Shown here: positions 23,093 to 40,247 of the stretch, in pieces | How the letters are laid out: every line of letters starts with the position of its first letter | Numbering within the stretch: position 1 is the first letter of the stretch | Assembly (NCBI GenBank): GCA_016935525.1 | Contig: JAFGQU010000013.1 | Location: 90,523-154,522, forward strand | Origin: Candidatus Omnitrophota bacterium | Lineage (GTDB): Bacteria > Omnitrophota > Gorgyraeia > Duberdicusellales > 4484-171 | Direction: 5' to 3' | Length of the DNA: 64,000 nt | Program-made: the position numbers and the translations under genes | Notes under the pieces: model-generated | Told to the model about the DNA's origin: nothing | The model's database searches: none | Seen by the model: the letters and a program-made list of their open reading frames with translations, nothing else

Positions 23093-23154
23093 AATCGCCG
23101 TAATCATTTTTTAATCGTTGAAATCAGGCGCTGGTGTTATTATTCAACAGCGCC
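23093..23154. promoter_or_regulatory. AATCGCCGTAATC-type motif plus a 7-bp stem-loop directly upstream of gmd
   Basis: aatcgccgtaatca (same family as 14348 and 16881), then aatcgttgaaatca, then the hairpin GGCGCTG-N14-CAGCGCC at 23127-23154. The RBS AGGAGG and a GTG start at 23168 follow immediately. Confidence 0.5.
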
Positions 23155-23167
23155 ATAGGAGGGCAAC

Positions 23168-24193
23168 GTGAAAAAAGCGTTGATCACCGGTATTACCGGC
23201 CAGGACGGAAGTTATTTAGCCGAATTATTGCTTGAAAAAGGATATGAAGTGTATGGATTGGTACGCCGGGTCGCTTTTGAAGACCAGGCTCATCGCATGA
23301 CCAGGATCCTGCATATTAAAGATAACCTTGATCTTGTCGCCGGTTCAGTAGAAAGTTTTCCCAGTATTTATAAAATAGTTCAGCAAGTCAGGCCTGATGA
23401 AGTATACCATCTGGCCGCGCAGAGTTTTGTCTCTTACAGTTTCGATGATGAATTCTCTACCTTACAGACCAATATCAACGGTACTCACCATATCCTTTCG
23501 GCGTGTAAAGACCTTAATACTCCGGTACGGGTCTATTTCGCCGGTTCAAGCGAGATGTTCGGCCAGGTAAGAGAAGTCCCGCAGAAAGAGACAACCCCGT
23601 TTCATCCCCGTTCCCCTTATGGGGTTTCTAAAGTGACCGGATTCGAACTTACTAGAAATTACCGGGAAGCGTACGGTATGTTTACCTGTAACGGGATCCT
23701 GTTTAATCACGAATCGCCTCGGCGGGGTTATGAGTTTGTCACCAGGAAAATTACCTCATCAGTGATCAATATTAAATCCGGTACACAGGATACACTGCTT
23801 CTGGGGAACCTCGATGCCAAACGGGACTGGGGATTTGCCGGTGATTATGTGAAAGCGATGTGGCTTATGCTCCAGCAGGATACCCCGGATGATTATGTGG
23901 TCGCAACCGGTGAGGCCCATACCGTGAGAGAATTTGCCGGGCTCGCTTTTAAATACGCCGGGTTCGATATCACATGGGAAGGGAAAGGGACTGATGAGAA
24001 AGGTATCGATACACATACCGGTAAAGTAGTGGTCGAGGTGGATACACAGTTTTTCCGTCCGGCGGAAGTGAACCTTTTGATCGGCGATTATAGTAAAGCA
24101 AAAAAAATATTAGGATGGAAACCACAGGTGACGTTTGAAGGATTAGTAAAAATGATGGTTGAATCCGATCGGGAGGCATATGGATCATCGTAA
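23168..24193 (+). CDS. gmd: GDP-mannose 4,6-dehydratase
   Basis: 341 aa. ALITGITGQDGSYLAELLLEKGYEVYGLVRR and the downstream YxxxK / ETTPFHPRSPYGVSK region are near-canonical for Gmd. Confidence 0.95.
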   Translation: MKKALITGITGQDGSYLAELLLEKGYEVYGLVRRVAFEDQAHRMTRILHIKDNLDLVAGSVESFPSIYKIVQQVRPDEVYHLAAQSFVSYSFDDEFSTLQTNINGTHHILSACKDLNTPVRVYFAGSSEMFGQVREVPQKETTPFHPRSPYGVSKVTGFELTRNYREAYGMFTCNGILFNHESPRRGYEFVTRKITSSVINIKSGTQDTLLLGNLDAKRDWGFAGDYVKAMWLMLQQDTPDDYVVATGEAHTVREFAGLAFKYAGFDITWEGKGTDEKGIDTHTGKVVVEVDTQFFRPAEVNLLIGDYSKAKKILGWKPQVTFEGLVKMMVESDREAYGSS

Positions 24194-25016
24194 GGTTCTT
24201 ATATTAGGTAAAGGTTTTATCGGGACAAGGATCTGTCAGGAACTACAGTGCGATATCGATGAAGAGATGATATCCCGTTACGAAGATGCCGAAAAACTGG
24301 TCAAAAAACATAATCCTAAAATATTGATCAACTGTATCGGTTTTACCGGCACAAAAAACGTCGATGGGTGCGAAGAGAAAAAAAATCAGACCCTTCTTGC
24401 CAACGTATTCATACCGATCATGCTGGCTGAAGTCGCGTTACGTCACGATATCAAATTCGTCCATATCAGTTCCGGCTGTATCTATCATTATGATTTTGAG
24501 CGTGACGAACCGATTCCAGAGATTAAACCGCCCGATTTTTTCGACCTTTTTTACAGCCGCAGCAAGATGTACTGTGAAGGCTCCTTAGGTATGATAGAAG
24601 AAAAATACCGGATGCTTGCGTTACGATTACGTATTCCGCTCGATGACCGGCCGCATCCGCGGAATCTCTTGACTAAACTGATCTCGTTTGGCCGGGTCAT
24701 CGATATCCCTAATTCGATAAGTTATATTCCCGATTTTATAGAGATGTTACGGCATCTGATCGAAAAAGACGCTTTCGGTATATATAATACGGTAAATAAA
24801 GGGGCTTTGAGGTATCCCGAACTTCTTGACGTATACAAAAAATACCGGCCGGATTTTGATTATTCGGTGATCCCCATAAAAGACCTTAATTTAGTGAGGA
24901 CGAATCTGGTCCTTTCTACGGAGAAATTGGAAAAAAGCGGGTTTCACGTACGCGATATTAATGAGATATTAGAGGAATGTGTCGGTACATATTTAGAAAG
25001 TGAGGTTGCAAAATGA
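24180..25016 (+). CDS. SDR-fold NAD(P)-dependent sugar-nucleotide reductase/epimerase (RmlD/Rmd-like)
   Basis: GxGxxG-like VLILGKGFIGTRI at the N-terminus, about 278 aa. Its position right after gmd suggests a GDP-4-keto-6-deoxymannose reductase or a related enzyme. Confidence 0.55.
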   Translation: MDHRKVLILGKGFIGTRICQELQCDIDEEMISRYEDAEKLVKKHNPKILINCIGFTGTKNVDGCEEKKNQTLLANVFIPIMLAEVALRHDIKFVHISSGCIYHYDFERDEPIPEIKPPDFFDLFYSRSKMYCEGSLGMIEEKYRMLALRLRIPLDDRPHPRNLLTKLISFGRVIDIPNSISYIPDFIEMLRHLIEKDAFGIYNTVNKGALRYPELLDVYKKYRPDFDYSVIPIKDLNLVRTNLVLSTEKLEKSGFHVRDINEILEECVGTYLESEVAK

Positions 25017-26026
25017 AGTTTACCATCGGATTTGAAAAAGAAGACATGAAAGTATTACACCGTTATTGGGATGAGATCGTCGAATCACAACGATGGAGTG
25101 AATGGAAATTTACTCAAAGTTTTGAAGAAAAATGGAACGCGTTGCATAATACAACATCCGTCGCTTTTTCCAGCTGGGGCGGCGCGGCCTTGGCGGCTCT
25201 TGAGTTTTTTAAGATAAAAGGGAAAACCGTTCTTTGTCCATCGAATACGTTTATGGCGACACCGCTGAGCGCGGTAAAAGCCGGAGCGCAGGTCGAATTT
25301 GTCGATTGCCGCCGCGATGATCTATGTGTTGATATTGAAGATCTGAAGAAAAAAATAGAAAAATATAAACCGGCAGCCGTATGGGTTGTCCATATCGGCG
25401 GGCATATCTCTTTTGCGATAGAAGAGATCGCCCGATTCTGTAAAACCAAAGGGATCATTCTTTTGGAAGATTGCGCTCATGCCCATGGCGCGTCTTGGAA
25501 CGGAAAAGCCGCTGGTACCTGGGGAGATGCGGGAATATACTCGTTTTACGCGACAAAGACGATTTCTACCGGTGAAGGAGGGATGTTGGTGACCAAACAT
25601 CAGGCGTTGGCCGATTACGCGAAAGCGTACCGTAATTACGGGAAATTTGATTATAAAGTAGAAGGGTTGAATTACCGGATGAGCGAGTTTACCGCGGCTA
25701 TGGGGTGCGTACAGTCCGATAGATTGAACGATATTGTCAGTTGGAAAAACGAATATGCCGCTAAATATCTCGATCCGCAGTATCCCAACCGTATAAAATT
25801 TCCCGAAGGGATGGTGTCGGGATATTATAAATATATCGTGTTTGAGGAAATAGAGAAATCGACCGGGAAAGTATATGACCAACCCTGCCATAAGATCATG
25901 GGTAAAGATTACGAATTACCCAATACCGAATGGGTAGCTCAACATCATTGGTGTGTTCCTTTATATTATAAAGGAGCGGATTTAGAGCTTGCCGGATCAG
26001 TAGAAGAAAGGAGCGTGCAATCATGA
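25013..26026 (+). CDS. DegT/DnrJ/EryC1/StrS-family PLP-dependent sugar aminotransferase
   Basis: FYATKTISTGEGGMLVT contains the PLP-lysine motif (K in ATKTIS). The downstream Y(R)NYG region is also present. Confidence 0.8.
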   Translation: MKFTIGFEKEDMKVLHRYWDEIVESQRWSEWKFTQSFEEKWNALHNTTSVAFSSWGGAALAALEFFKIKGKTVLCPSNTFMATPLSAVKAGAQVEFVDCRRDDLCVDIEDLKKKIEKYKPAAVWVVHIGGHISFAIEEIARFCKTKGIILLEDCAHAHGASWNGKAAGTWGDAGIYSFYATKTISTGEGGMLVTKHQALADYAKAYRNYGKFDYKVEGLNYRMSEFTAAMGCVQSDRLNDIVSWKNEYAAKYLDPQYPNRIKFPEGMVSGYYKYIVFEEIEKSTGKVYDQPCHKIMGKDYELPNTEWVAQHHWCVPLYYKGADLELAGSVEERSVQS

Positions 26027-26979
26027 AAGTATTAGTCACCGGAGGGTCAGGATTTATCGGGTCACATGTAGTTGATAAACTCCGTGATAAAGGGGTCGAA
26101 GTGAGAATATTCGATATGGTATTCCCCGCGTTTCGCAGTGATATCGAATATTATCAGGGCAGTTTGTTGGATTTTGAGACGGTACGGATGTCGATGAACG
26201 GTATTGACGCGGTATTACATCTGGGCGCGGTGGCTGACGTGAACTTTGTGTTTGCCGAACCGCATTATTCCGAATCGATCAATGTGCGCGGGACGATCAA
26301 TGTGTTAGAAGCCGCGCGCCGGGCGAAAGTGAAAAGAATCGTCTACGGCAGTACTACCTGGGTATACAGTGAAGCCGAAGGGACTCATGTGAACGAGAAT
26401 ACTCCGTTACATGCTCCCTCGCATCTTTATACCGCGACCAAGATGGCCGGAGAATTTTACTGTAAGACGTATAGTAAATTGTACGATCTTGAAGTAACGA
26501 TCCTTCGTTACGGTATCCCTTACGGCCCGCGGGCGCGCGATGCGGCGGTGATCCCTATTTTTGTCCGGAAAGCGTTAAGCGGTGAGGCGCTCACGATTGC
26601 CGGAGACGGTTCACAGTTCCGTAAATTCGTATATGTTGAAGATTTAGCTGAAGGGAATGCCCTTGGGCTTAAATCTATCGCGAAAAATAAAACCTATAAT
26701 CTCGACGGCCAGGAAAAAGTCACGATCAAACAGATCGCCGAAACGATTAAGAAGATCATCGGTAACGTGAAGATCGAATATGTCCCGGCCCGGCCGGGTG
26801 ATTTTTCCGGAAAAGAAGTCTCAAGTATTATGGCGAAAGAAGAATTGAACTGGGAACCGAAAGTGCCTTTTGAAGAAGGAGTACGCCGCTATATCGATTG
26901 GTATAAACAACGGGAAGAATACCGTAAACGTGCCTGGGATAATCTGGATGATACTTTAAAAGAAGGCGCGTTACGATGA
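26023..26979 (+). CDS. NAD-dependent epimerase/dehydratase (extended SDR; UDP-sugar 4-epimerase-like)
   Basis: VLVTGGSGFIGSHVVDKL Rossmann motif and YxxxK (YTATKMAGE). Confidence 0.8.
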   Translation: MKVLVTGGSGFIGSHVVDKLRDKGVEVRIFDMVFPAFRSDIEYYQGSLLDFETVRMSMNGIDAVLHLGAVADVNFVFAEPHYSESINVRGTINVLEAARRAKVKRIVYGSTTWVYSEAEGTHVNENTPLHAPSHLYTATKMAGEFYCKTYSKLYDLEVTILRYGIPYGPRARDAAVIPIFVRKALSGEALTIAGDGSQFRKFVYVEDLAEGNALGLKSIAKNKTYNLDGQEKVTIKQIAETIKKIIGNVKIEYVPARPGDFSGKEVSSIMAKEELNWEPKVPFEEGVRRYIDWYKQREEYRKRAWDNLDDTLKEGALR

Positions 26980-27644
26980 AAAAGGTATTGGTAGTTGCTC
27001 CCCATATGGATGACGAAGTCTTAGGTATGGGGGCGACTATCGCCAAACATGTCGCTGCCGGAGATGAAGTGCATGTGTGTATTATTGCGCACCGGGTATA
27101 TGACCATAAGTATGATGAGGAGACCAACCGTGAAGAACTGGAATCGACGAAAAAAGCAAAAGATATTTTAGGTTATCAACATTTGGAATTTTTGAATCTT
27201 CCTGATGAACGTCTGGACGGATGTGTGCAGGATATCCTCATTCCGCTTGAGAAGTATTACAATGAATTGAATCCGGATATTTTGTACGTTAATTTTTATG
27301 GCGATAACAATCAGGACCATCGGGCGGTGTTTTCCGCGGTACGGATACTTATCCGTTCGGCAAACACCTATAAAGTCCCGCGGGTGCTTATGTATGAAGT
27401 CCCTTCTTCGACTGACCAATCACCGCCGATACCGGATGCGATCTTTGTCCCGAACTTTTATGTCGATGTATCGGGGGTATGGCAGAAAAAGATCGAAGCG
27501 TTCCATTGTTACCAGAGGGAAAGGCGCGTGTCGCCTCATCCGCGCAGTGATAAGGCTCTCGATGCGCTTGTCATACGCCGCGGCGTCGAAGGCGGTTTTG
27601 AACGGGCCGAAGGGTTTATGTTATTAAGGGATGAATGGAAATGA
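26976..27644 (+). CDS. PIG-L/LmbE-family N-acetyl sugar deacetylase
   Basis: VVAPHMDDEVLGMG (HxDDE metal site) and the later HRAV / H-x-D motifs. Confidence 0.8.
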   Translation: MKKVLVVAPHMDDEVLGMGATIAKHVAAGDEVHVCIIAHRVYDHKYDEETNREELESTKKAKDILGYQHLEFLNLPDERLDGCVQDILIPLEKYYNELNPDILYVNFYGDNNQDHRAVFSAVRILIRSANTYKVPRVLMYEVPSSTDQSPPIPDAIFVPNFYVDVSGVWQKKIEAFHCYQRERRVSPHPRSDKALDALVIRRGVEGGFERAEGFMLLRDEWK

Positions 27645-28345
27645 TCAAAGTGCTTGGCTGTATTCAGGCAAGGATGGGGTCGCGGCGGCTACCGGGGAAA
27701 GTATTAAAAAAGATATCCGGAAAATCGTTGATTGTCCATATCATCGAACGATTGCGGGCCTGTAAGACGATAGACCGTATAGTGCTTGCGACATCGAAAA
27801 AAGAAGAGGATGACCTGTTAGAAAAGGTGGCTTGTAAAAATGGCATCGAATGTGTTCGCGGGTCCGAACAGAATGTACTCAAACGTTTTTATGATGTCGT
27901 TTGTCTGTACTGGCCGCATCATATCGTACGGATATGTGCCGATAGTCCCTTGATCGATCCCCTAGAGATCGACCGCATTGTACGCCACCATATACGTAGA
28001 GATGCCGATTATTCGTTTAATCATATTCCCGAGATGAATAACAGTTATCCGGACGGAGTAGGGGCCGAGATCTTTAAAAGTAATGTGATCGCGAATATTA
28101 TCAGACAAAAGACAACAAAAGCCGAACAGGAGCATATCAATGAGTATATCTGGAACCATTTGGACCGGTTCCGTATCGAGACGATAGCTGCTCCCAAAAG
28201 TATCGCTTATCCCGAATATCGTTTTGAAGTCAATACCGAGGATGATTTAAAATTTATACGTAAGATCTATAACCACCTTTATGAAGGGAAAGCCTTTAAT
28301 ACCCGATCGGTAATAGAATATTTAAAGTCACAATCGGTCCAATAA
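27635..28345 (+). CDS. acylneuraminate cytidylyltransferase-family protein (CMP-nonulosonate synthetase / SpsF-like)
   Basis: N-terminal IQARMGSRRLPGKVLKKISGKSLI is the nucleotide-binding motif of CMP-KDO/CMP-NeuAc synthetase-like cytidylyltransferases. Confidence 0.7.
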   Translation: MEMIKVLGCIQARMGSRRLPGKVLKKISGKSLIVHIIERLRACKTIDRIVLATSKKEEDDLLEKVACKNGIECVRGSEQNVLKRFYDVVCLYWPHHIVRICADSPLIDPLEIDRIVRHHIRRDADYSFNHIPEMNNSYPDGVGAEIFKSNVIANIIRQKTTKAEQEHINEYIWNHLDRFRIETIAAPKSIAYPEYRFEVNTEDDLKFIRKIYNHLYEGKAFNTRSVIEYLKSQSVQ

Positions 28346-28350
28346 AACGT

Positions 28351-29046
28351 ATGGAAAAGAAGGTCGTCGCTATCCAGCAACCCGAACATCTTCCCTGGCT
28401 GGGATTCTTTGACAAGATGAAACGTTGTCATGAATATATTTACTTGGATAACGTCCAGTTTAAAAAACGGTATTTTGAGAACCGTAACCGTATTTTGACC
28501 GAACAGGATATCCAATGGGTCACGGTTCCGGTAAAGACAAAAGGAAAATATCACCAGTATATTAACGAAGTGCTTATTGATGATGAAAAGCCCTGGCGCA
28601 GAAAATATCTGGGTATTATTCAACGGGCATATGCGAAAAGTCCGGAATTTGAGCGGTATTACGGTGAGCTTACCGATATCATTTCCCGTCCGGTCACGCG
28701 CCTGGTCGATTTGAATATTATGCTTATCGACTGGATAAGGACACATTTAGAGATTACGACACCGGTACGATGCGCTTCCGATATACGGGGATATCACGAT
28801 AAAGGGAGCGATTTGATCCTGGCGATTTGTAAAGATACAAAAGCCGATGTGTATATATCCGGTCCCGACGGCAGGAATTATCTCGATTTCGATGCATTTG
28901 CCGAGGAAAGAATCGAAGTCGTTTTCCATGAGTATCACCATCCGGTCTATCGACAAATGTCTGAACCGTTTCAAAGCCATATGTCAATCATTGATATATT
29001 GTTTTGCGGACAAAAAGATCAAATAGCCCAGAAAGTTTTTATTTAA
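28351..29046 (+). CDS. WbqC-like family protein
   Basis: The N-terminus VVAIQQPEHLPWLGFFDKM matches the WbqC family opening (MQP-Y/H-LPW-GYF). Confidence 0.7.
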   Translation: MEKKVVAIQQPEHLPWLGFFDKMKRCHEYIYLDNVQFKKRYFENRNRILTEQDIQWVTVPVKTKGKYHQYINEVLIDDEKPWRRKYLGIIQRAYAKSPEFERYYGELTDIISRPVTRLVDLNIMLIDWIRTHLEITTPVRCASDIRGYHDKGSDLILAICKDTKADVYISGPDGRNYLDFDAFAEERIEVVFHEYHHPVYRQMSEPFQSHMSIIDILFCGQKDQIAQKVFI

Positions 29047-29055
29047 AAAAGAAAA

Positions 29056-29850
29056 ATGATTTCTCAAAAGACGATTGAATATGGATTGCGCAAGGCAGGG
29101 TTGAAAAAAGGGGATACTGTTTTGGTCCACAGTTCATTGCGTAGCCTCGGGCCATTAGAAGGTGTCGATCCCGATGACCGTAATGGGTTTGTAAGCACGG
29201 TGTTTGCCGCGTTCTCCCGGATTTTAGGGTTACCTCGGCAGGGGACTTTAGTTGTGCCGACATTTACTCACGAGTACGCCCGTAATAATATCCCGTTTAT
29301 GTATGAAAAGAGCCCTTCGGAAGTGGGTTTATTCACCGAATACGTTCGTAAACAGAAAGGGGCGTACCGGTCGATGCATCCAATAAATTCGTTTTGTGCG
29401 ATCGGAAAGAAAAAACACGATATCTGTAAAGACGTGAGCATTTCCTGTTACGGATATAATTCTGTTTTTGATCGTCTTTATCAATTAGATGCAAAAATGA
29501 TGTTTTTCGGTTGCGGTATGTATCATATGACGTTGAAACATCATCTGGAGCAGATGGTGGCTTTACCTTATGTCTACACGAAAGCATATTTCACTCCGGT
29601 ATATAAGAATAACAAACCGGTAAAACTACCTTTTCTTGCGGTAGTACGGTATTTGAACGGGAGAGTCAACAACAACGATTGCCGGCAGTTTGAGCGTCAT
29701 CTAAAAAAGAAGAGAATGCTTACGAGTGTAGAAATCAGTAAAACGAAAATACTTCTTATGCGTATCCGTGACGCGTATGATCAAGGATATGAACTATTGC
29801 AGAAGAATCCCTGTTATTTTTTAAAAAAACCTTACTACACGACAAAATGA
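29056..29850 (+). CDS. AAC(3)-fold N-acetyltransferase-like protein
   Basis: LKKGDTVLVHSSLRSLGPLEG resembles the N-terminal motif of aminoglycoside 3-N-acetyltransferase-family proteins. In this locus it is a candidate amino-sugar N-acyltransferase. Confidence 0.55.
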   Translation: MISQKTIEYGLRKAGLKKGDTVLVHSSLRSLGPLEGVDPDDRNGFVSTVFAAFSRILGLPRQGTLVVPTFTHEYARNNIPFMYEKSPSEVGLFTEYVRKQKGAYRSMHPINSFCAIGKKKHDICKDVSISCYGYNSVFDRLYQLDAKMMFFGCGMYHMTLKHHLEQMVALPYVYTKAYFTPVYKNNKPVKLPFLAVVRYLNGRVNNNDCRQFERHLKKKRMLTSVEISKTKILLMRIRDAYDQGYELLQKNPCYFLKKPYYTTK

Positions 29851-30932: not shown

Positions 30933-31918
30933 AAGTAAATGTCGATCAATTCGCGTTAGATACCCGGATGAGAGGATTTTGGTGGCAATGGAAAAGAAGG
31001 TATCCGTTTTCGTTTATGCGTAATCGTATCGAATGGTACGCGTATCCTCAGTTTAAAGTCGTTCCGCGGTTCCCTTTACATGTGGATTTTGAGATCTCAT
31101 CTCTTTGTAATCTTCAGTGCCCGATGTGTTATCGTCCGCATCGTACCGATAGTAATGACGGGTTCATGGATTTAAATGCCTATAAACAGGGGGTCGACGA
31201 GTGCGCTAAATTCGATTTGTATTCGATCCGGTTAAGCTGGCGGGGAGAACCGACCATGCATTCGGATCTGGTCGAGATGGTCCGGTACGCCAAAGAAAAA
31301 GGGATAAAAGAAGTCTCGTTTATCACGAACGGTTTTAAACTGGATGAAAAACTCTCCCATGATCTCGTAACTGCCGGGATCGACTATTTTTCCGTATCGA
31401 TCGATGGAGTAGGCGAAAAATATAACGAGATCAGGTATCCGTCCCGGTTCGATGAGATGGTTAAACGTCTAAAGAATATGCGTGAGTTACGGGATACGAT
31501 CGGGGGGGGATATCCGCGGATACGGATCAACTCTATATGGAGCGCGATCAAAGACACTAAACAGGATTATTATAATACGTTTTCTCCGATCGTCGATTTT
31601 ATCACTGTTAATCCCGATTATGACCATTCGTTAAAAGATACCGGGATCGATCCCGACCATGTTTGTCAATATCTTTACCAGCGGTTGACCGTTATGTGGG
31701 ACGGTACGGTGCCGTTATGTATCTGTGATAAATCAAAAGAGGTAGTGTTAGGAAAGCTGGGTATCGATTCGTTATACGATATTTGGCATAGCTCGTTACT
31801 TAATAAGATGAGAGATCTGCAGAAACAGGGGCGGATAAGAGAGATAGTTCCCTGCACTAAATGTCAACGGTCGCTTACCGCGCAGATCGGAAACCAGAGG
31901 GACGTGAAGAAAAAATGA
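30929..31918 (+). CDS. radical SAM protein with C-terminal partial SPASM/twitch domain (paralog 1)
   Basis: CNLQCPMC is a CxxxCxxC motif. The C-terminus TVMWDGTVPLCICD ... CTKCQ gives a C-X12-G-X4-C first SPASM motif plus CxxC. Confidence 0.8.
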   Translation: MKVNVDQFALDTRMRGFWWQWKRRYPFSFMRNRIEWYAYPQFKVVPRFPLHVDFEISSLCNLQCPMCYRPHRTDSNDGFMDLNAYKQGVDECAKFDLYSIRLSWRGEPTMHSDLVEMVRYAKEKGIKEVSFITNGFKLDEKLSHDLVTAGIDYFSVSIDGVGEKYNEIRYPSRFDEMVKRLKNMRELRDTIGGGYPRIRINSIWSAIKDTKQDYYNTFSPIVDFITVNPDYDHSLKDTGIDPDHVCQYLYQRLTVMWDGTVPLCICDKSKEVVLGKLGIDSLYDIWHSSLLNKMRDLQKQGRIREIVPCTKCQRSLTAQIGNQRDVKKK

Positions 31919-32787
31919 AAACGATAATTATTGCTGAAATCGGTGAATGTTTTAACGGTGATATGGACCAGGCGAGAAAACTGATCGTGACCGCGAAAGC
32001 CGCCGGATGTGATTATGCCAAGTTTCAAACTTTGGATCGAGAAGGGATAGCCGAAGACGATCCGGAACGGGAATGGTTTTTGAAGGTAGCCCTTCAAAAA
32101 GAACAGTTAACACAACTGCAGAGTTGGTGCAGGGACGCGGGTATCGGGTTTCTCTGTACTCCGGAAAATAAGAAAAAAGCCGAAGAATTAAAAGAGCTGG
32201 GATGCCGGGAAGTAAAAATCGCCAGTACCTGTGCGTGGGATGATGAGTTGGTCTCTTATATATCGGAACATTTTTCCATCATTTTTGTATCGACCGGTTT
32301 ATCGACATTAGAAGAAGTCGATAAAGTCGTATCCCGTCTTAAAAAGCAGGAAAAAATATACCTTATGCATTGCGTATCGGAATATCCGACCGGCCCGTTA
32401 CTTACCCAACGGGGACTGCAGGCGTTATCTCATGAAAACGTGAATTTGCGGATGATGGATATCCTGAAAGAACGGTATCCCCATTGTGTAGTAGGGTATT
32501 CCGATCATACGGTGGATATAATAGTGCCGGTTGTCGCGGTTGCCCGGGGAGCGGGAGTGATCGAGAAACATATCACCCTGGATCGGAAAGGCCCGGTGAA
32601 TCTCTTCCTTTCCAAGCGCGGCTATAGCGGTACCGACCATGTGTTATCACTCGAGCCGGATGAGTTGAAAGAGATGGTCCGTCAGATAAGAGAAACCGAA
32701 AAAATATTAGGCGAAGCGGTCTGGCAGCGCAGTCCGGGAGAGAAGATCTTGATGGATTTTTTAAAAGGGCGGTTTTCTAATCCATGA
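31915..32787 (+). CDS. N-acetylneuraminate/pseudaminate synthase family (NeuB/PseI/SpsE-like) TIM-barrel protein, no SAF domain
   Basis: MKTIIIAEIGECFNGDMDQARKLIVTAKAAGCDYAKFQT matches the NeuB N-terminus (IAEIG-NHNG, AKFQ). At 290 aa it ends before the usual C-terminal SAF domain. Confidence 0.75.
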   Translation: MKTIIIAEIGECFNGDMDQARKLIVTAKAAGCDYAKFQTLDREGIAEDDPEREWFLKVALQKEQLTQLQSWCRDAGIGFLCTPENKKKAEELKELGCREVKIASTCAWDDELVSYISEHFSIIFVSTGLSTLEEVDKVVSRLKKQEKIYLMHCVSEYPTGPLLTQRGLQALSHENVNLRMMDILKERYPHCVVGYSDHTVDIIVPVVAVARGAGVIEKHITLDRKGPVNLFLSKRGYSGTDHVLSLEPDELKEMVRQIRETEKILGEAVWQRSPGEKILMDFLKGRFSNP

Positions 32788-33782
32788 AATATGTTTTTTT
32801 AACTCAAGGATCGCAGGCAGTCGGATACGGCCATGTATATGAGGCCCTCGCGATTGCCGAGACGTTATCTTCACCGGCTGATTTTATCTTGTTTGACTCT
32901 TCGGATATCGCCGAAACGATTGTGCGTCAAAAAGGGTATAACCGGATAAAAAGGCTAACTATGGATACGCTGGATACATGTGATATTTCCCGGGAGACGT
33001 GCGTGGTCTTAGACACCCGGTTGAACGATATCGTTCTCCAGAAGAAGATCCGCACACATGCCGGGAGACTCATCATGATCGATGAGTTAGGCGATAAAAA
33101 AGTCGATTGTGATGTCCTTATTAATTTCAGTATCTGTAAAGAATGGGTTTCTTCTTATCGTTACGAAAAAGAACCTCACTGTTTTTTCGGAGCACAATAC
33201 TATCCGTTACGCGAAGAATTTCTCTCTTTACCTAAAAAGGATAAGGGGCATCCGGTAAAAAGAGTGCTGATCAGCATGGGGGGAGCGGACCGGACACGGG
33301 CCACGTTAAAGATCGCCGAAAGTTGCGCATCGATAGAAGGCTGCGAATTTACTTATATCGTCGGCGGGGGATTTGAGTTTGGGTTAGACGAAATAAAAAC
33401 ATGTACCGGAAATAGAAAAAAACATCACATCATTAAAGATTCGTCCGATTTTGCCGGAATCTTAAATAGTCACGATATGATCATCACTGCCGGCGGAAAT
33501 ACGCTGTTCGAAGCCGCGTTTTGCGGGGTGCCGTCGCTGGTGGTATGGGAAGATGAACATGAACGGGTTCAGGGAGAAGCCTTTGAGCAATATGGAGTTG
33601 CTCGAGTGATAGGAAACGCCGGGGGATTTTCCGCTGAACAATTGCGAAATACGATAGAAAAAGTCCTGTCCAATCCTGCAGTACTGAAAAAAATGTCCGA
33701 TACCGGAAAGAAGCTGGTTGATGGAAACGGGTGTGAACGTATCACTCATATTTTAAGGGGAGTAAAAAATGTCAGTGTTTAA
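32784..33782 (+). CDS. PseG-like UDP-sugar hydrolase / GT28 C-terminal-domain family protein
   Basis: The N-terminus FLTQGSQAVGYGHVYEALAIAETL and the C-terminal GT-B half ITAGGNTLFEAAFCGVPSLVV resemble PseG (pseudaminic acid pathway UDP-sugar hydrolase). Confidence 0.6.
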   Translation: MKYVFLTQGSQAVGYGHVYEALAIAETLSSPADFILFDSSDIAETIVRQKGYNRIKRLTMDTLDTCDISRETCVVLDTRLNDIVLQKKIRTHAGRLIMIDELGDKKVDCDVLINFSICKEWVSSYRYEKEPHCFFGAQYYPLREEFLSLPKKDKGHPVKRVLISMGGADRTRATLKIAESCASIEGCEFTYIVGGGFEFGLDEIKTCTGNRKKHHIIKDSSDFAGILNSHDMIITAGGNTLFEAAFCGVPSLVVWEDEHERVQGEAFEQYGVARVIGNAGGFSAEQLRNTIEKVLSNPAVLKKMSDTGKKLVDGNGCERITHILRGVKNVSV

Positions 33783-34731
33783 TAAATATATGCAGACTTC
33801 TCAAGGGAAGCTGTTTGCCGATAAATATTGTAATGTTACCCCGGGAGAAAATGTCAGTTGCATACTCTGTGGTAGTCCTCAGGCGAAAGAGTGGTATCGT
33901 ATGGGTGATTTTATCAGTAAGATATGCCGGCGATGCGGATGCCGTTATGTTTCACCCCGGTTCAATGACGCTCAATTGGATGCTCATTACTCCGAAGATC
34001 TGTTTACCAAAAGTAAGGATTATGAAGGTGTTCGGCACAATATGCTTGATGAAAACGAACGTGCCCGTAAACGAAGCGATATGAAAGAAGAAATCCGGAC
34101 GACGATAGAACGCTGTCCTGACGGAGGGAAGGTCCTTGATATCGGTTGTCAGACCGGAATATACCTTCAAGCTCTTCCCGCATCTATAGAGAAATACGGG
34201 ATTGAACGAAGCCGCTGGGCCGCCGAACATACCCGCAAGATAACCGGTGCCGGGATACGGACCGGTAAGGTAGAAGACGGATATTTCGAACAGGGTTTTT
34301 TTGATGTGATCAATATGTCTTATGTCGTCGAGCATCTGCAGCATCCGCCGGTAATTATCAAGAAGATCGTCAGTTGGTTAAAACCGCAAGGAACGTTGAT
34401 CATATCGGTCCCTAATTTTGACAGTTTTTGCGCGAAGGTTTTCCGGGAGTTTTACCGGTTGGTCGAACCGCGTCAACATCTGTTTCTTACGACACCCGCT
34501 TCTCTACGGTATTTATTGGATCAAATGGGAGTGAAAATAGAGAAGATATATTATCCCTATTTCGGCACTTCCTATTGCCGTTTTTCAGAACAGTTCAGAC
34601 TTTTAACGAATATGATACGACGGATATGTCTGCCGGTTTTACTGAAAATAAACAAAGTTCCCGAAATACCGCGATTGATATCTCCGGCATTTTACGGGAA
34701 CATTATGACGGTAATCGCCAGGAAACGATGA
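33769..34731 (+). CDS. class I SAM-dependent methyltransferase with N-terminal Cys4 zinc ribbon
   Basis: CILCGS ... CRRCGC is an N-terminal zinc ribbon. VLDIGCQTGIYLQ is motif I. VVEHLQHP and LKPQGTLIISVPN are post-I motifs. Confidence 0.75.
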   Translation: MSVFNKYMQTSQGKLFADKYCNVTPGENVSCILCGSPQAKEWYRMGDFISKICRRCGCRYVSPRFNDAQLDAHYSEDLFTKSKDYEGVRHNMLDENERARKRSDMKEEIRTTIERCPDGGKVLDIGCQTGIYLQALPASIEKYGIERSRWAAEHTRKITGAGIRTGKVEDGYFEQGFFDVINMSYVVEHLQHPPVIIKKIVSWLKPQGTLIISVPNFDSFCAKVFREFYRLVEPRQHLFLTTPASLRYLLDQMGVKIEKIYYPYFGTSYCRFSEQFRLLTNMIRRICLPVLLKINKVPEIPRLISPAFYGNIMTVIARKR

Positions 34732-35579
34732 TGCAACTGGCTGCGACACAAGAAGATATGATCTATCAAGCCTATGTGCGTAAAAATGCGCCTATAGCCG
34801 GTACCGGGTATTTTATTTCTAAAGAAGCTCTCTTAAAACATGACACGTATGTCGTGCTTTATCATGCCGGAGAGCCGGTGCTCTTTTTCAGCAAATCTAC
34901 TATGCGCGATAAAGAAAAAACAATGCTTTCGAATTTCCTTATCTTAGCCGATGTATCTATTATAAAAACCCGTTCTTTATTAGAAGAATATATCAAGTCT
35001 CAGTCCGGACACTCATTTATCTGTGTGGTTGAAGAGTATCTTAAAGACGAATATGCGATGATAAATGACGGCCAATATGAAGTCGATCATATCGCGATCC
35101 GGATGTGGAATAAAGATGTGAGCCGATTCGCCTGTCCTGATCCTGAAAATATAACCATAGAACCGTTTCGGGTAGGGCATGATGAACAGCGGTTTGTGGA
35201 TATTTTTAATGAAACGTTTGTCGGATTATGTACACCGACGAATAAAGAAGAGGTGATCCGCTGGACTAAAGCTCCCGGCTTCTACCCGGACCTGTATCTC
35301 TTCGCGGTTAAAAACAAAAAAACTATCGGATTTATTGCCGTGGAAATCGATATCGATTCAGGGATAAGTTATCTGCAGGAGATCGGAGTCGGGAGAGAAG
35401 AACGTAACACTTCAGCCGCTGGGTTTTTAATCTGTACTGCTTACCGGTCAGTACGGGATAAAGGGGTTAAGTGTATGGGGGTCGGAGTACTCAAGCGTAA
35501 TGTGGGCGCGTATAAGTTTTTTTCTAAATGGGGATTTGAAGAGTTATATCGACGAATATTTTTGAGGAGGATCGTATGA
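34728..35579 (+). CDS. GNAT-like acyltransferase domain protein
   Basis: Start at ATG 34728, where its ATGA overlaps the methyltransferase stop. The 5' part of the six-frame ORF overlaps the methyltransferase in another frame and is rejected. The C-terminal FIAVEIDIDSGISYLQEIGVGREERN ... GVGVLKRNVGAYKFFSKWGF resembles GNAT motifs A and B. Confidence 0.45.
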   Translation: MMQLAATQEDMIYQAYVRKNAPIAGTGYFISKEALLKHDTYVVLYHAGEPVLFFSKSTMRDKEKTMLSNFLILADVSIIKTRSLLEEYIKSQSGHSFICVVEEYLKDEYAMINDGQYEVDHIAIRMWNKDVSRFACPDPENITIEPFRVGHDEQRFVDIFNETFVGLCTPTNKEEVIRWTKAPGFYPDLYLFAVKNKKTIGFIAVEIDIDSGISYLQEIGVGREERNTSAAGFLICTAYRSVRDKGVKCMGVGVLKRNVGAYKFFSKWGFEELYRRIFLRRIV

Positions 35580-36580
35580 TCTACTATAAAACGTCTAAAC
35601 AGGATGATCCGTATTTTGAATTGTGGAGCAGAAAAGAATGGTTATACCCGCTTGAGAATGCCGATGCGATGCAATTCCCTTTGATCGTCACGGTCGAACC
35701 GACCAATCGTTGCCAGAATAAGTGCCTGTATTGTTCCCGGCAGCTTATGACGCGTACATTCGGCAATCTTGATTTAGCAACTATGGAAAAAATCGCCGAA
35801 GAGTCAGGGCATCACCGGGCCGCGATTCGTCACGGCGGGTTCGGAGAGCCGCTTTTGCATCCGGATATCGAAAAGATCGTTGCGATCAGCAACAAATATA
35901 ATGTGCTTACGACGATCTTTACTAACGGTATGAATTTAAGCGAAAAGATGATGGAATCGTTCGTACGGAACGATTTATCTGAAATCCGGTTTTCTTCATC
36001 AGGTATCACACCGGATGTCCATAATAAGATACGCAGAAACAGCGACTATTCCCGTGATTTCGATGAGAAAATAAAGATGGCTCACCGGGTGAGAGCGCGC
36101 ATGGGAAGTAAAAAACCATTTTTTACGTTATATACAAACGTGATCGATTATAATGATTCTAATTTCCAGGAGAATCTCGAAATATACAGAGACCGATACC
36201 TGGAGTATGTCGACAAAGTCGATATCGATCTTACGATGTTTTCGCGGGTAAAACATCTTGATCATGTAAAGGACCTTTACTCTAAACAGACAGTCAACGA
36301 AGAATATAAAAAATGTGTCGGACTGTTTCTTAAGGTTATTGTCCATTGGAACGGAGATCTGTTTGCCTGCGACAAATTATATGATTTCCATGAAGATTAC
36401 TATTTAGGTAATTTAAAAGATGTCTCTATCGCGCAAGGATACGGATCGGAAAAGATGAAATATCTGCGTGATAACGTGAGCTTTGCCATGAACCATCAGG
36501 ATTTCGAGTATTGCCGGAATTGTTATACCAATACGAGTAAGTGGGATAAACCCGAAGAGTTTATCGGTAAAACAAAATGA
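35576..36580 (+). CDS. radical SAM protein with partial SPASM domain (paralog 2)
   Basis: CQNKCLYC is a CxxxCxxC motif. The C-terminus reads VIVHWNGDLFACDK ... CRNC. Confidence 0.8.
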   Translation: MIYYKTSKQDDPYFELWSRKEWLYPLENADAMQFPLIVTVEPTNRCQNKCLYCSRQLMTRTFGNLDLATMEKIAEESGHHRAAIRHGGFGEPLLHPDIEKIVAISNKYNVLTTIFTNGMNLSEKMMESFVRNDLSEIRFSSSGITPDVHNKIRRNSDYSRDFDEKIKMAHRVRARMGSKKPFFTLYTNVIDYNDSNFQENLEIYRDRYLEYVDKVDIDLTMFSRVKHLDHVKDLYSKQTVNEEYKKCVGLFLKVIVHWNGDLFACDKLYDFHEDYYLGNLKDVSIAQGYGSEKMKYLRDNVSFAMNHQDFEYCRNCYTNTSKWDKPEEFIGKTK

Positions 36581-37605
36581 ATATTTTTTGGGAAATAGGC
36601 ATATTATTTTTAGGTCTTCTTATCTTGGGTGAATTATATCTGCAGTTGAAATATACCCAGCGTATCCTTCAGAAAAAGAGAAGGATTCGAAAAAAAATCG
36701 ATCTTAATACGCAGGAAAAGAAATATTCCGAAGATCTGGTTAAGACTCATAGTAATGTTTTTCATAGAATAGGCTACGCATTAATTCCATGCTCGAACGC
36801 TGAATTTAATCATCCCGGCCTTTTCTCTGCGCCTTACCGGGTGCATGTTAATGCGCAGGGGATACGTGAAGAAGATGATGTGGTTCCTGAAAAGATTACT
36901 CCGAATACATTCGTCGGTATCTTCCTGGGCGATTCGGTTACTTTTGGATCGGGAGTACCTTTAGAAGAAACATTTACGAAGCAAACTCAGATGTTTTTAA
37001 AAGAACGAGGAGTGAATGCTCTCTGTCTTAATTTCGGTGTCGGCGGATATTCGGTAATAGAGAGTTTGCTTTCGGTTTTTTATCGCCGGGCTGAGGATTA
37101 TAGACTAAAATATATTATTTTCAATCTTACGATAAAATCTTTGTTTGATGCATCTAGATGTAACGATCCTTTAACGGGATATCATATGGAAGCGCGTCAA
37201 AAGTCATTTATTCTGCATGCGTTAAGAGTTCGATTGTCAGGAGGGAAATTGGTTTATTTGCATAAAAAAATGAGAAAATTCGATGATTGGTGTCGAACTC
37301 AAGACGTCCGGTTTATTGTTAATCTTTTACCGGCACTCTATCAAAACAAGATCCTTTCGCTTCAGACTAAAAACGAGTTTTCTTCTTTAAAATACACACA
37401 GACATTGGACTTTATGGAAATTTTAAAAAAAGATCAGAAATTAACCGTATGGGATTTTACGGAAGAATTTCTTAAATATGAGAAATTCGGACATTTTTAT
37501 CGTACCGGGGTAGATGGTAATTCGTCTGAGTTAGAAGTACATTATAGCAAAGAAGGAAATCAATTTTTGGGGCAACTAATAGCTCAGAAAATTTACGCAG
37601 AATAA
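36577..37605 (+). CDS. SGNH/GDSL-family hydrolase, membrane-anchored
   Basis: N-terminal TM helix. GIFLGDSVTFGSG is the block I GDS(x) motif. It is a candidate glycan O-acyl transferase or esterase. Confidence 0.6.
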   Translation: MNIFWEIGILFLGLLILGELYLQLKYTQRILQKKRRIRKKIDLNTQEKKYSEDLVKTHSNVFHRIGYALIPCSNAEFNHPGLFSAPYRVHVNAQGIREEDDVVPEKITPNTFVGIFLGDSVTFGSGVPLEETFTKQTQMFLKERGVNALCLNFGVGGYSVIESLLSVFYRRAEDYRLKYIIFNLTIKSLFDASRCNDPLTGYHMEARQKSFILHALRVRLSGGKLVYLHKKMRKFDDWCRTQDVRFIVNLLPALYQNKILSLQTKNEFSSLKYTQTLDFMEILKKDQKLTVWDFTEEFLKYEKFGHFYRTGVDGNSSELEVHYSKEGNQFLGQLIAQKIYAE

Positions 37606-37613
37606 AAAATAAT

Positions 37614-38483
37614 ATGAAAGATAACCTTTTGAATTGTTTGTTAGATTTAAAATATCGATATGTTTCTATCTTGCGTACAATTTATAATTGGTATAAAAAT
37701 AGGCATTTATCTTATACGGCACTTTCTCTAGATGATGTGAAAAGTAAATACAAGAAATCAGATACTATTTTTATTTTGGGTAGTGCCGAATCGATAAATG
37801 ATATTACGGATGAACAGTGGAGAACCGTTGCTCAGCATGATTCGTTTGGCATCAATAAATGGCCTATGCATGATTTTGCACCTACTTTTTATTATACAAA
37901 TTATCCCCGTAATAAGATCCATTTATATTGTTATTTAAATTCTATAAAAGAGAAAATTGCCCGTTATCATAATACTATATTTTTTGTGAGCTTTAATCGC
38001 GCGGTAAGAAGAGGTATGCATCCCCGCGTTTTTCCTGATTTTTTTTCTAAAAACCCTTTATGTTGTTTTTATGAAGCGGCGCCTCCGATAAAATTGACGG
38101 GTAATAAGATATTTGGTTGTGATTCATTTGAATTGACATTGCATTATCGAGGAGCTCTTTCGTTAATTCTAGATTTGGTTGATAAATTGGGGTACAGAAA
38201 TATTGTATTATTAGGGGTTGACTTGATAAACGCAGTCCATTTTTATGATAGCTATCCCGAAATGCAATGGCAGGTCGAGACCAAATATGCTCAGTCGATT
38301 CAGATAAATAGGAACCGAAAACATGGGACGATGTCGGATAAAAACGGGACCAAGGTGACAATGGATCAATATATATATGCGGTGGACAGATATTATTTTA
38401 AGCCAAAAAATGTGCGTCTCTATGTCGGGTCATCTGCATCTATTCTTGCAGAAAAAATTCCGGTGTATGATTTTAAAAATTGA
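37614..38483 (+). CDS. hypothetical protein, weakly DUF115/Maf-like (possible nonulosonate transferase)
   Basis: IFILGSAESINDI followed later by IVLLGVDL resembles the two glycine-rich Rossmann-like blocks of DUF115 proteins. This is uncertain. Confidence 0.3.
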   Translation: MKDNLLNCLLDLKYRYVSILRTIYNWYKNRHLSYTALSLDDVKSKYKKSDTIFILGSAESINDITDEQWRTVAQHDSFGINKWPMHDFAPTFYYTNYPRNKIHLYCYLNSIKEKIARYHNTIFFVSFNRAVRRGMHPRVFPDFFSKNPLCCFYEAAPPIKLTGNKIFGCDSFELTLHYRGALSLILDLVDKLGYRNIVLLGVDLINAVHFYDSYPEMQWQVETKYAQSIQINRNRKHGTMSDKNGTKVTMDQYIYAVDRYYFKPKNVRLYVGSSASILAEKIPVYDFKN

Positions 38484-38486
38484 AAA

Positions 38487-40241: not shown

Positions 40242-40247
40242 TCAATT

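Follow-up and report, generated by a model that had tools for sequence, protein, structure and literature searches.

A conserved, probably nonulosonate-type cassette built around a SAF-less NeuB and radical SAM enzymes lies beside a 6-deoxyhexose module in an Omnitrophota glycan locus

We analysed a 64,000-nucleotide (nt) stretch of the genome of a Candidatus Omnitrophota bacterium (GTDB lineage Bacteria; Omnitrophota; Gorgyraeia; Duberdicusellales; 4484-171), taken from contig JAFGQU010000013.1 of GenBank assembly GCA_016935525.1 (positions 90,523 to 154,522, forward strand) and called the window below. Its interval 23168-38483 contains a locus of the nonulosonate type, of a subtype that is widespread but uncharacterised, next to an ordinary 6-deoxyhexose module; nothing in it shows a categorically new system. 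The interval covers precursor synthesis within a far larger locus that serves a sulfated, methylated glycan. We favour, with modest confidence, the reading that it is the front of a single long operon whose product is a surface glycan, sulfated and heavily methylated, and that it holds two independent precursor modules, the second of which most likely makes a modified sialic-acid-like sugar using radical S-adenosylmethionine (SAM) enzymes. An earlier note, made from the sequence alone, had described the interval as a single mosaic nucleotide-sugar pathway. All the genes it named were recovered on the + strand with strong family matches in the open reading frame (ORF) listing and in Pfam and NCBIfam scans, and its family-level nonulosonate machinery and plausible sulfation stand, whereas its perosamine branch, its single mosaic pathway and its view of the synthase as truncated are not supported. 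Coordinates are those of the window, and the features for which we give a family and coordinates between 18994 and 42780 all lie on the + strand.

The anchor of the second module, which we call the cassette, is a NeuB-family synthase of 290 amino acids (aa) without a SAF domain (31915-32787; PF03102 201.3 bits against a cut-off of 22.1, covering positions 1-239 of 241 in the profile). This length is obtained when the protein is read from the ATG at 31915 that overlaps the preceding stop codon, and the sequence is 100% identical to a protein (P0001) of a Candidatus Omnitrophica metagenome-assembled genome (MAG). An origin in Leptospira, which the PDB and NCBIfam matches had led us to suspect, was rejected on this ground. 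Exact-sequence look-ups with the 308-aa and 290-aa versions of the NeuB protein and with P0001 returned no match. In Pfam and NCBIfam it matches NeuB-family models exclusively and no KdsA family; its scores stay below the equivalog cut-offs for both NeuB (TIGR03569, 199.7 versus 399.65 bits) and PseI (TIGR03586, 151.9 versus 340.25 bits). Relative to the Neisseria meningitidis enzyme (NmNeuB), it keeps E25, K53, Q55, K129, S132, Y186, H215, E234 and H236. The equivalent positions in the window protein (E8, K36, Q38, K101, S104, Y157, H198, E217 and H219) are invariant in 24 members of the clade described below, and the metal-site motifs GYSDHT and IEKHIT align to H215, E234 and H236. The earlier note had allowed that the protein might cluster with 3-deoxy-D-manno-octulosonate (KDO) 8-phosphate synthases or might have lost its metal-binding residues; neither was seen, and the NeuB-family synthase that it had proposed is present with its metal-site His pair and Glu intact.

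The synthase and its 24 relatives form a group of their own. Identity is 49-71% inside the clade and at most 36% for the next-best matches, and the clade has two insertions, one after YPT and one before GTDH. In a neighbour-joining tree, the window protein and the 24 relatives are monophyletic and stand apart from N. meningitidis NeuB, Campylobacter jejuni PseI, Bacillus subtilis SpsE and the Leptospira protein of PDB entry 6ncs, which places the enzyme outside the NeuB, PseI and SpsE branches. The C-terminal SAF domain of canonical NeuB contributes R314. The 24 clade members end 0-8 residues past the end of the window protein, while most other homologues are 70-100 residues longer, and the absence of the domain is therefore a trait of the clade and not a truncation. 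The best single-sequence PDB match, 6ncs (92 bits), is likewise a SAF-less NeuB of 290 aa, and about 30% of 13,941 UniProt nonulosonic acid (NulO) synthases have no SAF domain (PMC8208679). The short protein is thus less atypical than had been supposed.

The distribution of the cassette was surveyed with one genome per GTDB species, comparing the genes within 10 kb of NeuB to the window proteins by BLAST. Loci of the NeuB clade were found in 24 species-level genomes, which span at least eight phylum-level groups. The carriers include Omnitrophota, Planctomycetota (among them an anammox MAG), Nitrospirota, Desulfobacterota (among them the isolate Desulfovibrio sp. 7SRBS1), Acidobacteriota and SAR202, together with gut Lachnospiraceae, Selenomonadaceae and one Hydrothermarchaeota archaeon. 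Cultured carriers include Desulfovibrio sp. 7SRBS1 (locus L006; NZ_JBJKFD010000001.1, 495956-516819) and the Lachnospiraceae isolate B79_4_CH_BP (L022). A PseG-like gene is present in 23 of the 24 loci, directly after NeuB in most, a DegT aminotransferase in 22 and a radical SAM/SPASM gene of any kind in 21. WbqC occurs in 16 loci and PIG-L in 15, the latter in 15 of the 16 WbqC loci; a short-chain dehydrogenase/reductase (SDR) occurs in 11. The cassette is always embedded in glycosyltransferase-rich glycan loci.

In locus L001, whose NeuB (P0005) is 69% identical to that of the window, the cassette is preserved gene for gene at 39-78% identity per protein (DegT 76%, SDR 78%). The order there is DegT, SDR, PIG-L, cytidylyltransferase, WbqC, a variable slot, sulfotransferase, radical SAM, NeuB, PseG-like, methyltransferase, GNAT, radical SAM, GDSL-like, radical SAM and an ATP-binding cassette (ABC) exporter; upstream are genes for an adenosine 5'-phosphosulfate (APS) kinase, a PK-family protein and a helix-turn-helix protein, and there is no Gmd. 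The variable slot holds a 585-aa carbamoyltransferase in L001 and an AAC(3)-like gene in the window. The Lachnospiraceae version is minimal, consisting of DegT, radical SAM, cytidylyltransferase, a 589-aa radical SAM protein, NeuB and PseG-like, after which come WcbI and family 4 glycosyltransferase (GT4) genes. As a separate observation, in the complete Omnitrophota genome CP070780.1 (loci L004/L008) a 560-aa PF27859 'LIC12162' protein is encoded between two cassette radical SAM genes (12926-14608), and a canonical LegB/LegC/PtmE-like trio lies downstream of the cassette, so that this genome appears to carry both cassette types.

The first module (23168-25016) consists of two genes. The first encodes Gmd, a guanosine diphosphate (GDP)-mannose 4,6-dehydratase (23168-24193; TIGR01472 442.8 bits against a cut-off of 415, PF16363 447 bits). 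The second encodes an RmlD-like SDR of 278-285 aa that resembles the bifunctional 3,5-epimerase/4-reductases of the NRS/ER type (24180-25016); its ORF opens at TTG 24159 (285 aa), and the ATG at 24180 (278 aa), which overlaps the end of Gmd, is the likelier start. Its top PDB matches, aligned over nearly the full length, are 4qqr (Arabidopsis NRS/ER, 99.8 bits) and 7jid (Mimivirus uridine diphosphate (UDP)-L-rhamnose synthase, 77.3 bits). A GCI cysteine (C100) and a PRN..TK lysine (K166), which we take to be the acid/base pair proposed for epimerisation in these two enzymes, are invariant in the three-way alignment.

Relatives of the reductase were collected from metagenomes with the three-sequence alignment as the query, which gave about 43 loci (L085-L127) with relatives at 48-65% identity; a single-sequence query of the same metagenomes recovered none. 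A further SDR follows in 29 of these loci, mostly immediately downstream, and all 13 such SDRs that were aligned have the S-[ST]DE motif of RmlB-type 4,6-dehydratases. The reductase family is therefore the partner of a 4,6-dehydratase. In the economical reading, which its motifs and its neighbour suggest, Gmd and the reductase would make up a self-contained two-gene module for a GDP-6-deoxy-L-hexose of the fucose type, for which no aminotransferase is required; the stereochemistry and the nucleotide specificity of the product are those that we would presume from the enzyme families. The GDP-sugar part of the locus is ordinary. As an aside, the bacterial NRS/ER-like subfamily together with its RmlB-like SDR looks like a two-gene pathway of the nucleoside diphosphate (NDP)-L-rhamnose type that replaces RmlB, C and D.

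The gene that follows encodes a DegT-family aminotransferase (25013-26026; PF01041 210 bits), and it is here that the perosamine-type branch of the earlier note has to be weighed. In that account Gmd, the reductase and DegT would act in one mosaic pathway to give a GDP-4-amino-4,6-dideoxyhexose, which would be either a separate residue or a feeder of the nonulosonate branch. The three genes are indeed consecutive with overlapping stop and start codons, and DegT matches the perosamine synthetases 3bn1 and 3dr4 at about 80 bits. However, perosamine synthesis requires just Gmd and an aminotransferase, yet the intervening gene is of the epimerase/reductase type, and DegT scores higher to KdnA (5k8b), to the inosose aminotransferases 7b0d and 2c7t, its other top PDB matches, and also to PglE-type enzymes than to the perosamine synthetases. 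Moreover, DegT orthologues (61-76% identity) stand first in cassettes that have no Gmd within 10 kb; Gmd is found in one of the 24 loci, on the opposite strand, and the reductase in none. DegT therefore belongs to the downstream cassette as its first gene, and we regard a perosamine-type pathway as very improbable. Instead of one mosaic pathway, the interval would hold two independent precursor modules within one large glycan operon; several independent precursor modules in one locus are a normal layout for glycan loci.

The aminotransferase keeps its pyridoxal phosphate (PLP) lysine (YATKT). We also considered a ColD-type dehydratase for this gene and rejected it, as the PLP lysine is present and is not replaced by His. 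The next gene encodes an extended SDR of 318 aa that is epimerase/oxidoreductase-like (26023-26979; PDB matches GalE 4zrm and UXS 4lk3). This protein and 10 orthologues have GST[TVI]WVY (GSTTWVY in the window) at the position where 4,6-dehydratases have TDE, TSE or TDK, while YxxxK is kept. Without a D-E or S-E acid/base pair, it is therefore not a canonical 4,6-dehydratase.

These features bear on whether the cassette is a divergent but chemically ordinary pseudaminic acid (Pse) or legionaminic acid (Leg) pathway. Such a pathway would use the SDR as its 4,6-dehydratase and yield a 5,7-diacylamido-3,5,7,9-tetradeoxy-nonulosonate, which radical SAM, WbqC and PIG-L would merely decorate. The six generic Pse roles do have family-level candidates, namely SDR, DegT, GNAT/AAC(3), PseG-like, NeuB and CTP_transf_3; the top NCBIfam match is PseC for DegT and PseG for the GT-B protein; and the closest characterised system, B. 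subtilis sps, makes Leg with SpsC, D, G, E and F (PMC7439481). Yet the dehydratase signature is replaced in the SDR and its orthologues, and Pfam and NCBIfam scans found no PseB, PglF or CapD-type dehydratase anywhere in the window. The equivalog cut-offs are missed about 2- to 7-fold (DegT: PseC 150.2 versus 423.5 and LegC 130.7 versus 420 bits; SDR: PseB 48.5 versus 407.75 and LegB 147.9 versus 475 bits), except for PseG. The Lachnospiraceae versions have no SDR, PIG-L or WbqC but keep DegT and two radical SAM genes, and NeuB falls outside the PseI, NeuB and SpsE branches. An ordinary Pse/Leg pathway is thus an unlikely description of the cassette.

We prefer a route in which radical SAM enzymes take part. 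Radical SAM 1 (30929-31918; Radical_SAM 68, SPASM 41.6 bits) is a core member of the cassette with the motif CNLQCPMC, five C-terminal cysteines and a shortened, twitch-like SPASM C-terminus. Radical SAM/SPASM 2 (35576-36580; Radical_SAM 60, SPASM 38 bits) has four C-terminal cysteines and orthologues at 66-74% identity in loci L001, L003 and L005; it is one of two genes inside the interval that were absent from the earlier list, the other being a weak SGNH/GDSL-like gene (36577-37605). The best PDB match of both radical SAM proteins is BtrN, and inosose aminotransferases, which are among the top PDB matches of DegT, work with BtrN. DegT and radical SAM genes co-occur even in loci without an SDR. 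The amino group is probably installed by DegT on a keto group that a radical SAM enzyme would generate.

Two more radical SAM/SPASM genes follow downstream, radical SAM 3 (40248-41162) and a paralogue in the same glycan operon, radical SAM 4 (45613-46554). Radical SAM 3 (80 bits, positions 222-505 of 510) and the cytidylyltransferase of the cassette (45 bits) match the C- and N-terminal halves, respectively, of the fused spirochaete spiro-SPASM model TIGR04321, and their counterparts are adjacent in a Lachnospiraceae locus (L019, 7606-9982). This arrangement suggests that the two proteins may be a functional pair, and the fusion offers a Rosetta-stone hint of radical chemistry on a sugar linked to cytidine monophosphate (CMP). 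We also considered maturation of a ribosomally synthesised and post-translationally modified peptide (RiPP) or another peptide by the radical SAM enzymes and the ABC transporter; we rejected it, since neither a precursor peptide nor a peptidase domain on the transporter was seen, and since these genes are conserved as parts of sugar cassettes. Another two radical SAM genes, of different types, are located upstream in the window (5343-6983 and 11920-12861).

The cytidylyltransferase itself (27635-28345; PF02348, CTP_transf_3, 106.9 bits) is of the SpsF/6oew type and keeps the R..S.RLPGK nucleotide loop. Its sole full-length PDB match is 6oew (87 bits), while KdsB structures reach at most 46 bits over the N-terminal ~115 residues. 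Among the NCBIfam models, those for KdsB align to just the N-terminal ~120 residues, with 38-64 bits where the cut-offs are 155-281, and PseF scores 27.9 against 205.7. The enzyme is accordingly not a CMP-KDO synthetase, an identity that the earlier note had named as one that would undermine its nonulosonate branch.

The PseG-like GT-B protein that the earlier note had listed (32784-33782), a putative nucleotide-sugar hydrolase, is present as well. It comes close to the PseG model (TIGR03590, 126.1 versus 153.55 bits), matches PDB 3hbm at 24 bits, and has an N-terminal GYGH aligned to the catalytic-His motif GFGH of PseG, so that the GxGH motif is kept. As to a NeuC-like LegG 2-epimerase/hydrolase, the sole Epimerase_2 match is to a C-terminal fragment of the PseG-like protein (26.9 bits, below the cut-off of 30.6).

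Between the SDR and the synthase lie genes for a PIG-L family de-N-acetylase (26976-27644; PF02585 75.8 bits) and a WbqC-family protein (28351-29046; PF08889 228.8 bits). The co-occurrence of PIG-L and WbqC suggests deacetylation followed by modification of the freed amine. WbqC has no PDB sequence match. The family, which comprises 16,532 representative clusters at E<=1e-3, is described in the literature as uncharacterised, and our literature search found no paper that assigns it a function. Separately, three WbqC representatives (P0332, P0390 and P0409) carry a fused C-terminal domain of about 170 aa that has FGGDG and DPPA motifs by eye, is N-methyltransferase-like and has no Pfam match.

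The same genes invite the question of whether the product is a nine-carbon (C9) nonulosonate at all. NeuB might condense phosphoenolpyruvate (PEP) with another aldehyde to give an ulosonic acid of eight carbons or a higher one, or a non-sugar keto acid; or the DegT, radical SAM, PIG-L and AAC(3) set might make an aminoglycoside-like amino sugar for the glycan. DegT, radical SAM and PIG-L have analogues in 2-deoxystreptamine pathways, BtrS, BtrN and BtrD, the PDB matches being those of DegT and radical SAM. The insertions of the clade, its loss of SAF and the E134-to-Cys exchange described below imply an altered substrate pocket, and ulosonic acids of more than nine carbons have been suggested in microbes (PMC8157484). 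However, no inosose synthase or other cyclitol gene is present, and the cassette is found in glycosyltransferase-rich glycan loci without exception. In addition, a PseG-like protein, NeuB, a cytidylyltransferase and a GT42/Maf-like protein together are the signature of CMP-nonulosonate use. A product other than a C9 nonulosonate therefore appears improbable to us, and we retain the modified nonulosonic-type acid.

The last member of this signature is a protein of 289 aa (37614-38483). The earlier note had proposed it as a weak DUF115/Maf-like candidate transferase, and its sequence match to MptE-like/DUF115 (PF01973) is at noise level (12.7 versus 34.6 bits, E=0.11), with six of 49 homologues carrying PF01973. 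The proposal is now backed by an AlphaFold2 model of high confidence (predicted local distance difference test (pLDDT) 95.4, predicted TM score (pTM) 0.93). In a Foldseek search this model matched the GT42 sialyltransferase Cst-I (2p2v, E=2.3e-4, TM 0.49/0.51) and Maf (5mu5, E=6.4e-4), followed by CstII (1ro7, TMt 0.51) and ST8SiaIII; the matches to 2p2v, 5mu5 and 1ro7 all have a probability of 1.00 and TM values of about 0.5. From the predicted fold, the protein is a candidate CMP-ulosonate transferase of the GT42/Maf-like (MptE-like) superfamily. Directly downstream is a gene for an ABC exporter in which the transmembrane and nucleotide-binding domains are fused (38487-40241; HepA 390, MsbA 327 and PglK 256 bits, all below cut-off), and this exporter follows the cassette in L001 and L005 too.

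Sulfation of something made by the operon is well supported by the gene content and motifs. A set of genes for the supply of 3'-phosphoadenosine-5'-phosphosulfate (PAPS) lies upstream of Gmd: an ATP sulfurylase/APS kinase fusion (18994-20958; APS_kinase 241, ATP-sulfurylase 208 bits), a second APS kinase with DUF2061 (21099-21821, by Pfam) and a CysQ-like protein of the inositol monophosphatase family (21846-22769; Inositol_P 176 bits). Sulfotransferase 1 (29847-30932; Sulfotransfer_3 67.8, Sulfotransfer_1 44.7 bits) lies inside the cassette and has orthologues of 43-44% identity in L001 and L005; in the BLAST survey a sulfotransferase was scored in one of the 24 loci. Sulfotransferase 2 (41938-42780) was identified by Pfam. 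Both enzymes keep the PAPS-binding motifs for the 5'-phosphosulfate loop and the 3'-phosphate, FRSGTT and RDPRGVFAS in enzyme 1 and QRSGTT and ERDIKGIVNS in enzyme 2. Sulfation, as the earlier note had suspected, is thus credible because PAPS-supply genes upstream are combined with two sulfotransferases with intact motifs.

Further genes of the cassette would serve tailoring. Both N-acyltransferases of the earlier list were confirmed: the AAC(3)-like N-acetyltransferase (Antibiotic_NAT; 29056-29850; PF02522 147.5 bits) that occupies the variable tailoring slot, and a GNAT acetyltransferase of 283 aa (34728-35579; Acetyltransf_1 26.4 bits in its C-terminal part). The listed ORF of the latter opens at TTG 34428, and the probable start is the ATG at 34728, with the L001 orthologue having 282 aa. 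A class I SAM methyltransferase (33769-34731; Methyltransf_23 81 bits) has a 60% identical orthologue in L001 and L005. The SGNH/GDSL-like protein matches Lipase_GDSL_2 at E=0.017 and the NCBIfam LA_2486/LA_2490 GDSL models at E~6-9e-4, and its L001 orthologue (47% identity) also has a weak Lipase_GDSL_2 match.

A model for the two modules can be proposed from these assignments. In module 1, Gmd would form GDP-4-keto-6-deoxy-D-mannose, and the NRS/ER-like enzyme would epimerise it at C3 and C5 and reduce C4 to give a GDP-6-deoxy-L-hexose of the L-fucose type. Module 2 (25013-38483) would be the conserved cassette around the SAF-less NeuB clade. Here, the PseG-like hydrolase would release a nucleotide-linked amino sugar, NeuB would condense it with PEP to a nonulosonic-type acid, and the SpsF/6oew-type cytidylyltransferase would activate the acid with CMP. 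DegT would aminate a keto group supplied by a twitch-type radical SAM enzyme, as in the BtrN/BtrS pair, or by the SDR, and not by a classical 4,6-dehydratase. PIG-L would strip an N-acetyl group, and WbqC would act on the freed amine. Lineage-specific tailoring might involve the AAC(3)-like acetyltransferase, GNAT, the methyltransferase, the sulfotransferase, radical SAM 2 and the SGNH-like protein. Finally, the GT42/Maf-like protein may pass the CMP-sugar to an acceptor, and the downstream ABC exporter may move the glycoconjugate. The order of the steps, the roles of radical SAM and WbqC, which hexose serves as precursor and what is sulfated are inferred from family membership and gene context, and the same holds for all chemistry beyond the family level.

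Several observations weigh against this model. None of the module 2 enzymes scores above an equivalog cut-off of NCBIfam for Pse, Leg, neuraminic acid (Neu) or KdsB enzymes, and the assignments are at the family level only. In the synthase, NmNeuB E134, one of three proposed catalytic Glu residues, is replaced by Cys in the clade (KIASTC in the window, KIASSC in the consensus), with an invariant Asp three residues downstream; the neighbour-joining tree carries no bootstrap support, and its anchors are partial PDB sequences. The cytidylyltransferase was detected by BLAST in 13 of the 24 loci. The BtrN match of the radical SAM proteins is weak, at 38 bits and over the C-terminal region only, and a model of WbqC (pLDDT 94.3) has no fold match at E<=1e-3, just weak matches to HUP-class nucleotide-binding domains. 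For module 1, most relatives of the reductase pair with RmlB-like dehydratases and not with Gmd, and the reductase could use a deoxythymidine diphosphate (dTDP)- or UDP-4-keto sugar made elsewhere in the genome.

The gene layout fits one operon. From Gmd to the gene of the 289-aa protein, and with the probable starts, genes overlap by 4-14 nt or are separated by no more than 9 nt at 15 of 16 junctions; the exception is the NeuB start at 31915, which was chosen to overlap the preceding stop. From Gmd to sulfotransferase 2 (23168-42780), again with probable starts, overlaps of 4-19 nt or gaps of at most 9 nt are found with two exceptions, and this region therefore reads as one operon. The functional unit exceeds the interval of the earlier note, with PAPS genes upstream and exporter and tailoring genes downstream to at least 46554. 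Beyond 38483 follow the PglK/MsbA/HepA-like exporter, radical SAM/SPASM 3 and 4, a methyltransferase (41144-41941, by Pfam) and sulfotransferase 2, and further downstream at least eight methyltransferases, GT4 and GT2 glycosyltransferases, a polysaccharide deacetylase and a Wzy_C-type protein.

Housekeeping genes (mreBC, PBP2 and rodA) occupy the first 12 kb of the window. The glycan locus begins at about 17-19 kb and opens with a PEP-CTERM protein and the complete PAPS supply set. The PEP-CTERM protein (17193-18413), directly upstream of the PAPS genes, is Asp-rich, has about seven repeats like TDN..D....ISGD.IVW and looks propeller-like. A perfect sigma-70 consensus (TTGACA-16 nt-TATAAT, 12/12) is located at 18620-18647 (+), some 350 nt before the gene for the ATP sulfurylase/APS kinase fusion, and judging from its sequence it may be the operon promoter; promoter-like sites overall were not enriched over shuffled sequence (42 versus 42.8), and the single perfect consensus alone was retained.

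The intergenic region 22770-23167 (398 nt) is the sole long gap within 18994-46554, the next largest being 140 nt. Its part 22770-23030 contains nested inverted repeats, with a folding energy of -101.3 kcal/mol versus -61.6 in shuffled sequences (z = -8.0). This part is single-copy in the window and in 84 fetched loci, and the upstream and intergenic region has no Rfam match. The segment may act as a regulatory RNA or attenuator in front of Gmd, or it may be left over from an inserted element.

Other observations concern the distal part of the glycan locus. At least 10 methyltransferase genes lie between 33769 and 57621. Two ORFs, 51210-52346 (378 aa) and 53510-55753 (747 aa), have no Pfam match at E<=1, save for noise-level matches of the second. 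The listed ORFs 42713-43702 and 44605-45549 extend into the genes before them by 68 nt and 152 nt, respectively, and translation of each probably begins at a start codon after the first one in frame.

Nonulosonic acids shape the recognition of microbial surfaces, and every characterised bacterial route to them of which we are aware (Neu, Pse, Leg and acinetaminic acid (Aci)) uses the same few enzyme types. Against this background, a distinct, always SAF-less NeuB clade recurs in a set with radical SAM, PIG-L and WbqC across many uncultivated phyla and gut Firmicutes, and the cassette is a concrete, testable candidate for new sugar chemistry. A bolder reading is that the cassette, with DegT, one or two twitch-type radical SAM enzymes, an SpsF-type cytidylyltransferase, a PseG-like protein and in most phyla also PIG-L and WbqC, encodes a route, so far undescribed, by which radical SAM chemistry leads to amino-ulosonic acids of a new class. 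Amination would proceed by radical SAM oxidation and transamination in place of the universal 4,6-dehydratase route, and in the Omnitrophota lineage the sugar itself would be O-sulfated and methylated. We put this forward tentatively, as a possibility that we would not bet on. To our knowledge, a sulfated nonulosonate here would be the first in a prokaryote. Our literature searches on nonulosonic acid, sulfotransferase and gene cluster found nothing describing the cassette, and no paper linking radical SAM enzymes to nonulosonate synthesis. The cassette also gives a functional context to WbqC, a family of over 16,000 representative clusters, and likewise to the spiro-SPASM family of spirochaetes. 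The linkage of PAPS supply and sulfotransferases to a nonulosonate locus bears on the co-occurrence of sialylation and sulfation reported in environmental extracellular polymers (PMC10483923).

Among known systems, the closest characterised one is the Leg pathway of B. subtilis sps (SpsM, C, D, G, E and F; PMC7439481). It likewise combines DegT, an N-acetyltransferase, a PseG-like GT-B protein, a NeuB-family synthase and CTP_transf_3 in a surface-glycan locus, and SpsE (1vli) is the best profile match to the window NeuB clade (137 bits). However, SpsE has a C-terminal extension (385 aa in 1vli) and falls in another clade than the window NeuB, the pathway starts with the CapD-type 4,6-dehydratase SpsM, and genes for radical SAM enzymes, PIG-L, WbqC and sulfotransferases are absent from sps. 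The CMP-Pse pathway of Campylobacter and Helicobacter (PseB, C, H, G, I and F) shares the logic of aminotransferase, N-acetyltransferase, UDP-sugar hydrolase with GxGH, PEP condensation and CMP activation, but the window has no PseB-type dehydratase with the TDK motif, and PseC, PseG, PseI and PseF are all below cut-off. The CMP-Leg pathway differs in that LegB and LegC are below cut-off and no NeuC-like LegG is above it.

For module 1, the nearest relatives are the UDP-L-rhamnose synthases of plants (NRS/ER, 4qqr) and of Mimivirus (L780, 7jid), with which the reductase shares the GCI and PRN..TK motifs and the pairing with a 4,6-dehydratase. The dehydratase in the window is Gmd, a GDP-mannose enzyme, and the expected product is a GDP-6-deoxy-L-hexose instead of UDP-L-rhamnose. 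The reductase also differs from the canonical Fcl/GMER family: it has no match to NF047922, to which Gmd and the 318-aa SDR score 26.9 and 74.3 bits against a cut-off of 500.

Single components of the cassette have further counterparts. The Leptospira protein 6ncs shares the length of 290 aa and the absence of SAF with the window NeuB but lies outside its clade and has neither of the two clade insertions, and Leptospira 6oew resembles the window cytidylyltransferase over its full length; both are structural-genomics entries without an assigned product. The spiro-SPASM family TIGR04321, also a model without an assigned product, fuses the cytidylyltransferase and radical SAM/SPASM that are separate genes in the window. 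The GT42 enzymes Cst-I and CstII and the Maf transferases share their fold with the predicted structure of the 289-aa protein at a sequence identity of 14-16%.

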